From the NCBI GenBank assembly GCA_951406725.2, contig OX597831.1, forward strand, positions 27,218,001-27,282,000: 64,000 nt of DNA, given 5' to 3'. This document shows, one piece after another, positions 21,788 through 33,772 of the stretch (the stretch's first letter is position 1; the number at the start of each line of letters is the position of its first letter). Below the pieces are notes generated by a model. That model was not told the origin of the DNA and searched no databases. It saw nothing but the letters and a program-made list of their open reading frames with translations. Origin of the DNA: Octopus vulgaris (Eukaryota). The position numbers and the translations under genes were made by a program.

Positions 21788-21987
21788 TAGGCGTGGCTGT
21801 GTGGTAAGAGGTTTGCTTCCCAACCACATGATTCCGGGTTCAGTCCCACTGCGTGGCAAGTCTCTTCTGCTATGGAGCAGGGCCGACCAAAGTAAGAACT
21901 GGAGTCGATTTCTTCGACTGTGAACCCTTCAAAGCAGTGCCCCAGCATGGCCGCAGTCCTATGACAGAAACAAGTAAAAGTTAAAAG
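21788..21987 (+). mobile_element. SINE family B with internal deletions
   Basis: Head TAGGCGTGGCTGTGTGGTAAG and tail CCCAGCATGGCCGCAGTC...AAGTAAAAG. Confidence 0.75.
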
Positions 21988-22483
21988 GGATCTAGTCTTT
22001 CTCATTCTCAAAATGAGTCCCCCCCCCCACTTAATTTTGCTCAGATTGCTTTCAGTTTTGGTGTATCGATGCAACTCTGAATTTTGATTGCGATCAATCA
22101 ATTACATTATCTCGTAAGTTGAAGTATCTGATGTTATTTGGAATCAAAGTGGGAAAATTTGGGTAATTTTAACCAATCAACAGACAGCGTGGCTTTAGCA
22201 GCTTGTTACCATGACAACTGCACGCTGTGTTATGGTTCACCGTTGGGATCTTTTCCTTTTGAACGGCAGTTTTCAACACAATTTCTAGTTAACTAAACAC
22301 TTTTAAACTTCGTATACTGGTAGAATGTGTCAAAATAAAACATTTTTTCTCTTGGCTTTCTTGAGAAAATTGTAATTTGTAAGTTTAACGTAGTTTAATT
22401 TTTCGAATTTTAACCAATCAACTGCCTCTAGTGAGCTAAAATCATTTGCTGCGTCTAAAACTGAGACAACATCCTGTCACAAA

Positions 22484-22525
22484 CCCTAACCCTAACCCTA
22501 ACCCTCACCCTCACCCTAACCCTAA
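22484..22525 (-). repeat. Interstitial telomeric repeat (CCCTAA)3(CCCTCA)2(CCCTAA)2
   Basis: Direct inspection. Confidence 0.95.
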
Positions 22526-22873
22526 ATTTTAGCCTTTGGTTTTTTTTTCTTAATTGTTAAATTAATTTGATTGTTACGCGTGTGTCTAAAATTATTCGTT
22601 TTGTTTTTGTTTTGAGTTTTTGCTTTCGTTTTAGCCTTTCGTTTTTTTTCTTAATTGTTAAATTAAGATTATTTTCCATTGCTTTCGTTTTAGCCTTTCG
22701 TTTCCTTTTCTTAATTGTTATCCTTAAATTAATTTAACAATTAAGAAAAAAAAACGCGAAGGCTAAAACGAAAGCAAAAACTCAAAACAAAAACAAAACG
22801 AATAATTTTAGACACACGCGTAACAATTAAATTAATTTAACAATTAAGAAAAAAAAAAAGCAAAGGCTAAAAT

Positions 22874-22901
22874 TTAGGGTTAGGGTTAGGGTTAGGGTTA
22901 G
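22874..22901 (+). repeat. Interstitial telomeric repeat (TTAGGG)4
   Basis: Direct inspection; four GGG runs. Confidence 0.95.
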
Positions 22902-23632
22902 TGACAGAATGTTGTCTCAGTTTTAGACGCAGCAAATGATTTTAGCTCAATAGAGGCAATTGATTGGTTAAAATTCGAAAAATTAAACTACGTTAAACTT
23001 ACAAATTACAATTTTCTCAAGAAAGCCAAGAGAAAAAAATGTTTTATTTTGACACATTCTACCAGTATACAAAGTTTAAAAGTGTTTAGTTAACTAGAAA
23101 TCGTGTTGAAAACTGCCGTTCAAAAGGAAAAGATCCCACCGTTGTCCATGCTGCTGTTGTGCACGATGGTTTCACCCGCGTGTTTTGTTTTAATTTTTCT
23201 GTGTTAGTATATTACATATTTTCCCGTGCTTTTTCTGTGTGTTAGTAGTTTTACATATTTTTCATTTCATACGTTTTTCGGACTCATTGACTCAAATAGC
23301 TGGATTTATGATTTCACTAGGTTAAATCTATTCATGAAAATTTAAATTTGGAGTATTTCTTAAACCGTTAGCTTCACGTTTCAACAGCTTAACTGAAATT
23401 TTGCCCACGTAGCAGGAACTTAAGGGAATATCGTCGAACAGAGAAACTGTGGGTGATACAGATAATTTAACATTATTTTTGAATTCTGCATGCAAAAACA
23501 TATAAGATACAGGTATTCTTTTCCTTGGGACAAATTCTTTGTTGACCAGTGTTATTCTTATCGTGGTTTACAAATCCAAGCATGAAAACATTACTCAACT
23601 TTGGAGTTTTGGAAACAGACGTTCCCTTTTCA

Positions 23633-23693
<61 letters not shown>

Positions 23694-24288
23694 AGAGACA
23701 AAAGAAACAGTAAGATGATACATGTTGATTTTATTTGGTATTTCTGTTTATTTAGAAACCTACAATGAACAGGTCAGACGCTAAACTATAAATTTCACAG
23801 GTTACAACCTTAAAGTTGACATCGCTCTGATAAACGCAGAAAATTTCTGTCTCGCTATTGACTAAAATTACCTAGTTTTTTTCGATTTTTAAACCTCTGT
23901 AACTTTTTTCCCCAATTTTTTTCCCTCCACATCATCATACTTTCAAAGCAATGAGACTGGAAGACTACATTATTATAGCCGATTTTCAGATTTTTTACTT
24001 CCTTTTTAAAATATGCATATTTCGTGAATGAAAAAAACTAGATCCGTTAAAAGATATATATATATATTTCGTTTTTGGATTTGGTTTGCAAGATTCTTTA
24101 TGTGAGTTCGTGCATATTTTGGTGTATGTGGGAGTCATTCTCTTTTAATGCCTTATTATCTAACACTCAGCGGTTTAGTTGCCACTCATTTACTTATTTA
24201 TTTATTTTTTTAAATTTTCGTTGCGTCTTTCAATCTTTTCAATAGTCATATCAAACAGCAGAGATTTATCATGATGGAGACCGCTTAA

Positions 24289-24690
24289 GGCGGCGAGCTG
24301 GCAGAAACGTTAGCACACCGGGCGAAATGCGTAGCCGTATTTCGTCTGCCGTTACGTTCTGAGATCAAATTCCGCCGAGGTCGACTTTGCCTTTCATCCT
24401 TTCGGGGTCGATTAAATAAGTACCAGTTACGCACTGGGGTCGATATAATCGACTTAATCCGTTTGTCTGTCCTTGTTTGTCCCCTCTGTTTAGCCCCTTG
24501 TGAGTAATAAAGAAATAGGTATTTCGTCTATCTATTACGTTCTGAGTTCAAATTCCGCTGAGGTCGACTTTGCCTTTCATCATTTCGGGGTCGATAAATT
24601 AAGTACCAGTTGCGTACTGGGGTCGATCAAATCGACTGGCTCCCTCCCACAAAATGTCAGGCCTTGTGCCTAGTGTAGAAAAAATAAATA
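24289..24690 (+). mobile_element. SINE A dimer (second unit with alternative tail)
   Basis: Junction GAAATAG|GTATTTCGTC; TSD ATGATGGAGACC at 24271-24282 and 24692-24703. Confidence 0.85.
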
Positions 24691-25080
24691 AATGATGGAG
24701 ACCTCTTAGCAAATACACACATTTCACCAATTGATTGCAATAAAGGATTGAGTGAAGCTGCTGGCTTAGCATTGGTGAATGTGGATTGGTTTATCTTAAG
24801 TATCTTATTTTTTTTTTTTTGTCGAATAAATCGATCCCGGACTTGACTTTTAAAGTATGGTACTTATTCTGTCGACCCCTTTTGCCGAACCGGTAAGTTA
24901 CGGAGGACGCAACGCACCAACATTAGTTGTTAAGCGATGGTGGGGGACAAGCACAGACACGCCCACACACAAACACACACACACACATACATACAGACAC
25001 ACACACACATATATATATATATATAGAGAGAGAGATAGAGAGAGAAAAATTAATATAAACGGCAGGGCGCAATTTAATAC

Positions 25081-25313
25081 CTATTTCTTTACTACTCACA
25101 AGTGGCTAAACACAGAGAGGACAAACAAGGACAGACAAACGGATTAAGTCGATTATATCGACCCCGGTGCGTAACTGGTACTTAGTTAATCGACCCCGAA
25201 AGAATGAAAAGCAAAGTTGACCTCGGCGGAATTTGAACTCAAAACGTAGCGGCAGACGAAATACCGCAAAGCATTTCGCCCGGCGTGCTAACGATTCTGC
25301 CAGCTCGCCGCCT
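25081..25313 (-). mobile_element. SINE A full length
   Basis: Complete unit; flanking AATTTAATACC duplication. Confidence 0.85.
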
Positions 25314-26159
25314 TTAATTTAATACCATAAAGGAAAAATTCAATCGTCATTAAATATGACCAACTGGTGCCGAGACACTTACATTGCTAGAAATAAGAGT
25401 CAAATACTCTTGGTGATATCCTATTCCCTTCTCTCTATTTTTTACCGCTACTACAGTGACCTCTATTCCTAGAAGCTAACTAGTCTCATGTCACCTCCAC
25501 TCAAGCACTTCGGAATCTCTTGACTTTCCTTGTCTTGTCAGCCATATTGTGTCTACCCCCACGCCTCTCACTAACCACTAAATCCAGTCCTTCCTCCCCT
25601 GAATTTCAACCCTCTGAAATTCCTTCCCTGTACAAAGAACGGTTCACCAGATCAACGTTATCAGTAATGAAAGACCTACGATAGTCACGGACACAAGGCC
25701 TTCTTCTAAACCCAACCAATAAAGACAACTCAGATGGTGTTGTGTTGGTTTGTGTTGGATTGTTCCTCTTTTTTAGTTCCCTGTTCTCAGTAAATTTCGG
25801 GACACATCGGATTTTATAGTGTTTACTTTGAGTTTGTTGTTTTGGAACTAGTTTCTAGATAATTTAGAGTTGTCTAGGCAGTAGTCTATGGGCGGAACTG
25901 TGATATCATTTCCACCTGAGGCTGTCGGTGTATTTTGTAAAATTATGGGGAAGCCGAGTCAATTGGTGAAGTTAATGATTTGTTTAACATGTTAAGTGCT
26001 ACAGGTTATAGATTTTCATCTTCACTGCGTCAATTTTTATTGTGTTGTCGCTTTTTATTTGTTTTCGTGCAGCATCTGAGTATCTGTATGCTGAACACGT
26101 GATTTTAAGAATGTCCTCCACTGTACTTTAACTCACCCAGCTTCGAAGTAATGCAAATA

Positions 26160-32749: not shown

Positions 32750-33772
32750 ACCCTTGTTGTTTACAACTTCTTCCCAACGTTCAACAAGATTTTCAATACC
32801 TCGTTGGTAGAAATCACCCGATTTCGACTCGAAAAATTGATCCTACCAAGCTCTCAATTCTGCATCAGTATTGAACGAAATTCCTTGCATAGCATTTGAA
32901 AGAGATCGAAAGAGGTGGAAATCCGTTGATGCCAAATGAGAAGAGAACGGTGGGTGTGGCAGCACTTCCCAGTCATGCGTTTGAATGGCTTCCTTGGTCA
33001 TATTGGCGATATGAGGGCCGGCGTTGTCGTGCAGCAGAAGAACTCCATGCTGCCGACTAGGTCTTTTCTCTTGAATAGCTGTGTTGAGTCGTTCCATCTG
33101 TTGAACATAGAGTTCTGCGTTGACCGTTTGGTTCCGTCCAAGCAATTCGTAATGGATAATCCCTTTCCAGTTCCACCCTAAGCACAACATCGTTTTACGC
33201 GGATCTTGTTTCACGCGCAGTGTCGCTTATTTACCAGGGCTATGCCATTCCTTACGTTGCTTCATATTTATGTACAGGCACCATTTTTCGTCGCCAGTAA
33301 CGATTCGGTAAAGAAATCGTTGCTGGTGTCCATGAGTTGAGCAGTGACGAGCAAGCAAACCAACGGAGATTGTGACTCGTTGATTTTTGTTGTTGTCACT
33401 TAAAGTATGCGGAACCCATGCTCCATACTTCTGAACCTTTCCCATCGAGTGAAGATGCTTCTCTATAGCAGTTTGGGAGCATTCCATTTTCTCTGCCAGT
33501 TCCCTTGTCGTTTGACGACAATCTTCATGCAAAAGTTGGTTTGATCGCTCTTCATTGAACTCAACTGGACGGCTAGAACAAGGTGCGTCTTTGAGGTCAA
33601 AATTTCCATTTTTGATCTTGGCATACCAATCACGATCGGTTCTTTCAGCTATGGCACCCTCTCCATACACAGCACAAATGTCGTGAGCAGCTTTTGCGGT
33701 CTTAGAACCTTGATTAAAAGCAAAAAGAAGGAGGTGTCGAAAATGCTCGTTTTTCTTAATTTGACATTCCAT
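32750..33772 (-). pseudogene. Mariner (DD34D) transposase pseudogene
   Basis: WVPHTLS, IVTGDEKW, LLHDNAGPH, HPPFSSHLASTDFHLF motifs; D-34-D spacing; in-frame stops at 33227 and 32843. Confidence 0.92.

Follow-up and report, generated by a model that had tools for sequence, protein, structure and literature searches.

Structure of the foldback element

The locus raises the question of how a transposable element without a gene of its own comes to carry a telomere-like repeat in both arms, oriented like two chromosome ends, and whether this arrangement is of any use to the element. It lies in a window of 64 kb, the whole stretch of octopus DNA that was analysed, and comprises the following features.

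21988..24045, no strand assigned: host element of a second non-autonomous family, which is more diverged and has GGATCTAGT ends; contains the window element
22238..22245, plus strand: left copy of the target-site duplication, 8 bp, read from the sequence
22246..23136: foldback element as a whole, 891 bp, with GGATCT...AGATCC termini and CACCGTTG on either flank
22246..22666, plus strand: left arm, the 5' end and untranslated leader of a GGATCT-ended Merlin transposon, by homology to coding copies
22484..22525, plus strand: left telomere-like tract of seven units (five CCCTAA, two CCCTCA)
22527..22735, plus strand: repeated leader modules, including the unpaired spacer 22667-22729
22730..23136, minus strand: right arm, a second, inverted copy of the same Merlin 5' end, by alignment of the arms
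22874..22901, plus strand: right telomere-like tract, (TTAGGG)4 followed by TTAG, a minimal four-run G-quadruplex motif
23137..23144, plus strand: right copy of the target-site duplication, 8 bp, read from the sequence

When aligned, the left arm (421 nt) and the right arm (407 nt) match at 394 positions and mismatch at 8; of the 24 gap columns, most fall in the tracts. The left tract has the order CCCTAA (three units), CCCTCA (two) and CCCTAA (two), and the right tract amounts to 4.7 units. The motifs TTTTAGC and TTTTAGG occur three times in each arm and recur in the leaders of coding copies. No reading frame of at least 100 amino acids is present. An earlier note on this DNA had described the element from the letters alone; its coordinates, the length of 891 bp, the near-perfect arms, the 8-bp duplication and the repeat tracts proved exact.

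The RNA of the element is predicted to fold with an energy of -603.6 kcal/mol, which corresponds to z = -60.8 relative to 20 shuffles. Within this predicted hairpin the right G-tract is paired to the left C-tract, a pairing that would compete with quadruplex formation. If transcribed, the hairpin may act as a dsRNA template and as a putative ADAR or siRNA substrate, as the earlier note had proposed.

Insertion into a host element

The nesting of 22246-23136 inside a GGATC-ended host element had been missed before. The host element possesses its own 8-bp duplication (21980-21987 and 24046-24053), measures 1,159 bp without the insert and is free of tandem CCCTAA. Its family comprises 766 candidates, the best paralogues being 88-90% identical, and 8-bp duplications are present in all six paralogues for which both ends were found. 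The end of the host element is 82% identical over 68 nt to the left end of a coding copy (L108, see below).

The insert is absent from the corresponding site of all 19 paralogous host copies, and 12 of these contain the octamer once with at most one mismatch. Thus, a true insertion is confirmed. Compared over 17 nt as empty sites, 8 of the 19 paralogues, which are diverged, show at most six mismatches. Among the listed matches in the contigs of four runs, which are dominated by paralogues, there is no usable empty-site joint. In a different copy of the host family (L059), a GGCAC-ended Merlin element is inserted.

Other features of the window

Two inverted copies of a common short repeat, which we take to resemble an octopus SINE, are found at 24287-25314. 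They are 93% complementary over 203 nt and lie 622 nt apart, so that a hairpin would be possible if the region were transcribed. As a relative of the foldback element this pair was rejected, since the short repeat is common and unrelated. Two consecutive frames on the minus strand (32843-33772) presumably represent the remnant of a Tc1/mariner-like transposase, judged by motifs. Among the long frames of the 64-kb window no long, non-repetitive host-gene frame was recognised; small exons may be present.

Affiliation with Merlin transposons

Merlin elements are defined by 5'-GG termini, a target-site duplication of 8-9 bp and inverted repeats of 24-462 bp (PMC8101967). The window element has terminal 5'-GG and inverted repeats of 421 and 407 nt, duplications of 8 or 9 bp are found in its family, and its ends are homologous to elements that encode a DDE_Tnp_IS1595 transposase.

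The coding relatives were reached through the transposase domain. PF12762 has 476 matches in the genome, of which 150 were scored, and 20 wider stretches around such loci yielded a single lead. This copy, L108, has a GGATCTAG end at its start and encodes an IS1595-type domain (PF12762, E 5.7e-9). A search with its protein gave 1,221 candidates, of which 150 were scored, and revealed a clade with many GGATCT ends beside the frame. Both GGATCT-type ends are present in L145, with a perfect 8-bp duplication (8/8), and in L140, with a duplication of 6/8. L108 itself was rejected as the autonomous partner because its ends are mismatched and a duplication is absent; it served only as the protein probe. 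The 30 best PF12762 loci, mainly of a GGCAC-ended family, were discarded as a source of the partner.

The window arm and the 5' end of L122 are 79% identical over 210 nt. Its positions 1-176 and 330-440 align with the leader of L163 at about 76%, and positions 1-166 and 330-440 with the leader of L164 at about 75%. The stretch 22527-22613 is 93% identical over 87-88 nt to the sequence just 5' of the Merlin start codon in L262 and L270. As the leader homology extends to near the start codon, each arm corresponds to a Merlin front end, and the two front ends stand head to head. When 52 of 237 distinct arms are placed in a tree, those of miniature elements and the coding 5' ends are interleaved. 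The Merlin origin, until now suggested by termini and duplication length, gains homology of the arms to transposase-coding copies in the same genome. Very probably, the window element is a Merlin-derived foldback miniature transposon.

Among the coding ends scored or read, the closest are 76-82% identical to the window arm and belong to broken copies. No intact transposase copy with ends more than ~82% identical to the arm was found among 150 of the 1,221 candidates and ten start-codon matches.

Other loci (L031, L033-L036, L043, L101-L104) belong to a Merlin clade with open frames of ~308 amino acids, several of them near-identical copies. In the Merlin remnants L163 (5230-5420), L162 and L058, part of the element's own coding region is repeated in inverted orientation just downstream of the frame, a layout that reveals the tendency to fold back known from the miniature elements. 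Among the molluscs analysed in one study, Merlin is nearly confined to cephalopods (PMC10294476). An octopus repeat annotation from 2026 lists Merlin among the recently active elements, and its main text does not mention telomeres (PMC13282606).

Size and variation of the family

The genome searched comprises 2.8 Gb in 227 contigs. The terminal 24-mer of the element has 1,326 exact matches (660 + 666), the reversed control none. With the first 225 nt as query, 1,325 candidates were obtained; 40 of them were scored and are 97-100% identical. From the 30 best and 40 position-ordered loci, 51 distinct two-ended copies were recovered, most of them 310-891 bp long. Their target-site duplication is 8 bp in 39 copies, 7 bp in one and 9 bp in one, and ten copies have none. 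A call of 8 bp allows at most one mismatch, a threshold passed by 16 of 20,000 random flank pairs. Accordingly, both the multi-copy non-autonomous family and the 8-bp duplications across copies, as the earlier note had expected them, are real. Miniature inverted-repeat elements are short and non-coding, with inverted ends, a target-site duplication and a high copy number. The present family is likewise non-coding, with inverted ends, a duplication, 1,326 ends and lengths mostly of 310-891 bp.

At least four subfamilies can be distinguished, which share the outer 200 nt at 72-98%. Two or more units are found on both strands in 18 of the 51 copies, on one strand in 25 and on neither in eight. 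The window copy lies towards the long, symmetric end of this range and is otherwise an ordinary element. Since the arms are inverted, any arm sequence would show the outward, chromosome-like orientation. The supposed design, an arrangement like chromosome ends, thus reduces to a consequence of inverted duplication, with tracts on both strands in a minority of copies. The proposed G-quadruplex-capable tracts stand as far as the motif is concerned, which is present in 21 of the 51 copies; the predicted pairing of the G-tract with the C-tract would compete with them.

Gain and growth of the telomere-like tract

In the coding copies examined, (CCCTAA)2 is absent from the elements' own ends. Leader sequence occupies the tract position in some arms of the window's own subfamily, as it does in the coding copies; in the window element, the tract replaces leader sequence that is present in the coding copies and in 54 ancestral-type arms. 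Counted by exact matches, 1,151 junctions bear the tract and 54 are of the ancestral type (~21:1). Because the coding copies lack it, the tract is likely a later gain in this subfamily.

Of 84 position-ordered arms found, 61 matched over at least 170 nt and were read for tract length. At least one unit is present in 47 arms, at least two in tandem in 34, at least three in 13 and four in four. The longest perfect run is 0-2 units in 48 of the 61 arms and four units in four, and a G-quadruplex motif occurs in 21. Truncated arms number 26 of 136; four of them end at the tract and two more within ~20 nt, which gives no clear enrichment of the kind that a fragile site might produce.

Expansion can be followed in two other families. 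In the GGCAAGAC family, four of 20 copies keep one TTAGGG seed and others reach up to 24 units; inside flanks that stay constant, the expanded tracts combine TTAGGG hexamers with the 8-nt unit of the seed. In the GGCGAAG family, which has 317 exact ends, the tracts comprise 0-6 units of 6 or 7 nt. Mixed unit lengths that copy a local seed favour slippage over synthesis by telomerase, and slippage on the local seed thus fits the expansions better. Slowing of replication forks at interstitial tracts has been linked to slippage and expansion (PMC6410037).

Share of the interstitial telomeric repeats

A pattern of three CCCTAA units followed by a base other than C has 4,845 matches in the genome, partly from long arrays, and none in the reversed control; a five-unit pattern has 441, also partly from long arrays. 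The three-unit sample consists of 66 distinct sites in the first 97 Mb of contig 1, leaving out four repeat rows of one array and two sites that had been read separately, both in the clan. Of these sites, 56 belong to the GGATCT clan, four to the GGCAAGAC family and one to the GGCGAAG family; the other five are unassigned, and by eye one of them resembles the GGCGAAG family. The 23 distinct (CCCTAA)5 sites divide into 18 GGATCT, two GGCAAGAC and three neither. Among the short interstitial telomeric repeats sampled, about 85% thus reside in the GGATCT clan, which is their main carrier. Together with the 1,151 tract-bearing junctions, this bears out the dispersal of short TTAGGG tracts that had been proposed.

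A fourth TTAGGG-bearing family was encountered in a single copy, which has a 9-bp duplication. When the tracts are masked, BLAST shows no similarity among representatives of the four families; the three further families have GG ends and duplications of 8-9 bp in common with the GGATCT clan and may be Merlin-derived. At L187 and L175 the end of the GGCAAGAC family lies within a GGATCT leader, where it immediately precedes the array. The loci L341-L370 represent a miniature family with a length of ~85-135 bp, whose members end in GG...CC, are flanked by duplications of 8 or 9 bp and contain TTAGGG units in the loop.

The further claim, that the family disperses telomeric seeds, is not supported. 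The tracts mostly comprise one to three perfect units, and at seven TTAGGG arrays of kilobase or sub-kilobase size no GGATCT-clan sequence is present in the stretches read (eight stretches and L293-L300). One long array contains a single 26-nt match to the GGCAAGAC family. There is no sign of family elements nucleating long arrays. As a terminal TTAGGG array is missing from all of 20 contig ends, the telomere motif of the host is deduced from the internal arrays and from one FISH report on another octopus (as cited in PMC6160780 and PMC13218726).

The interior of scaffolds also contains several degenerate TTAGGG arrays of multiple kilobases (L371-L378), one of them (L375) with a head-to-head strand switch; these arrays may be misplaced telomeres or fusion sites. 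A kilobase array at L293 1150-3030 (G000:C5 near 210 kb) is broken by a repeated unit of ~33 nt. At the start of G000:C6 (L231 1-480), a tandem repeat of ~47 nt has one CCCTAA per unit.

Origin of the element and alternative explanations

The best overall explanation is a gene-less Merlin foldback with a slippage-prone passenger tract, to which a probability of about 0.7 is assigned. The element lacks a gene, consists of two Merlin front ends in inverted orientation and is probably mobilised in trans by a Merlin transposase. The foldback may have formed by template switching during repair of an excision gap. In this subfamily a single event would have put the tract in place of part of the leader, perhaps as a copy from a different miniature element with TTAGGG; a shared stretch of only ~13 nt points to this source. 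Later amplification would have scattered the tract, which in each arm is likely a passenger that changes its length by replication slippage, and the outward orientation would be a by-product of the inversion.

That the tract as a whole goes back to telomerase is unlikely. In such a capture, repeats would have been added to a broken Merlin end during repair, and the healed piece rejoined and amplified. This is the accepted origin of the short tracts of vertebrates, which are often accompanied by flanking deletions (PMC7215372), and the octopus tract likewise replaces leader sequence. Furthermore, the G-strand starts from an in-register TTTAG in several subfamilies, and the genome does contain kilobase TTAGGG arrays. 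In the window subfamily, however, the G-strand junction is out of register with the ancestral leader, and a telomerase template would give hexamers whereas the expanded tracts mix units of 6, 7 and 8 nt. Telomerase could still have supplied the first one or two units.

A passenger tract leaves one observation less well explained. Four TTAGGG-bearing families have dissimilar ends, and none of the 54 ancestral-type arms is paired inversely with another ancestral-type arm; pure neutrality fits both facts less easily than selection. It is conceivable, if rather improbable, that the tract mimics telomeres: telomere-binding proteins would pair, protect or unsilence the ends, and tract-bearing copies would out-replicate the rest. 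The excess of 21:1 in tract-bearing arms agrees with this, as do the four GG-ended families, which all carry TTAGGG and whose representatives show no BLAST similarity outside the tract, and the GGCGAAG family (~100 bp), with at least one unit in 25 of 29 copies and at least two in 16 of 29. Human TRF1 and TRF2 bind a subset of short interstitial tracts, but binding depends on length and conservation (PMC6410037), and perfect runs do not exceed two units in 48 of 61 arms. Modules are also swapped by nesting, so the gains are not fully independent; a founder effect likewise gives a skewed ratio; and the 8-bp duplication is kept in four of the eight copies with fewer than two units on either strand. 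It is thus doubtful that several Merlin-type miniatures converged on the host telomere repeat because telomere-binding proteins aid their movement or shielding. If this were true, thousands of dispersed sites would titrate or relocate telomere proteins and mark fragile sites.

A connection with telomeres might also be absent altogether. TTTAG(G/C) would then be a putative subterminal motif for the transposase or a host factor, whose expansion happens to spell TTAGGG. Tandem repeats are common within Merlin families (PMC8101967), and TTTTAGC and TTTTAGG in the coding leaders and in each window arm are consistent with such a motif. The coding copies, on the other hand, were mobilised without tandem units, and convergence on the exact hexamer (4,845 matches against none for the reversed pattern) is left unexplained, which makes this reading improbable.

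A different superfamily with 8-bp duplications (hAT, P, Zisupton or Mutator), conceivable because a duplication of this length is by itself non-diagnostic, is largely refuted by arms collinear with leaders that run directly into the Merlin frame, and its probability is minimal. Zisupton-type elements have been reported in cephalopods (PMC10294476).

Comparison with known systems

What deserves further attention is the clan's role as carrier. Since ancestors without a tract, seeds of a single unit and expanded copies are found side by side, the origin of the tract and any benefit are directly testable. Copies of the family would confound telomere FISH, telomere length from read counts and telomere calls in assemblies of this group.

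The Drosophila elements FB and Galileo have long inverted arms, internal repeated modules, variable length and asymmetric deletions. The window element resembles them in arms and modules, but belongs to a different transposase superfamily, and both of its arms derive from the same Merlin 5' end. Telomere-like motifs are known from fish elements of similar type. In the titles and abstract openings returned by full-text searches no TTAGGG-bearing Merlin element is evident; the families may be catalogued in Repbase or Dfam, which lay outside the scope of these searches.

With the Merlin elements of a published survey the family shares GG ends, the 8-9 bp duplication, the range of inverted repeats, tandem repeats and the IS1595-type transposase of related coding copies (PMC8101967). 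It differs in that the repeat is the telomeric hexamer, occurs in several families and is absent from the coding copies examined. The main text of that survey does not mention telomeres; its table gives Merlin-1_Aplcal of a sea slug a 6-bp repeat in 39.5 copies, listing periods and not units (PMC8101967).

The TBE elements of Oxytricha are likewise DNA transposons with the host telomeric repeat in both inverted repeats (PMC4724952). These Tc1/mariner elements are autonomous and take part in genome rearrangement, and the repeat is fixed in all of their inverted repeats. The octopus family, in contrast, is gene-less and Merlin-derived; its tract, located ~235 nt from the end, ranges between none and about ten units and occupies both arms in only 18 of 51 copies.

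Short internal TTAGGG tracts are also found in vertebrates (PMC7215372, PMC6410037, PMC9693754), where the sites are interpreted as one-off repair insertions; loci with four or more units number 229 in human and 140 in horse. The spread of transposable elements has been named as a possible origin of interstitial tracts (PMC6410037, PMC9693754). Unlike the vertebrate sites, most of the sampled octopus sites are copies within one transposon clan, although the thresholds differ and the counts are not directly comparable. The octopus thus offers a countable case, in which a single clan of transposons holds the large majority of the sampled short tracts.
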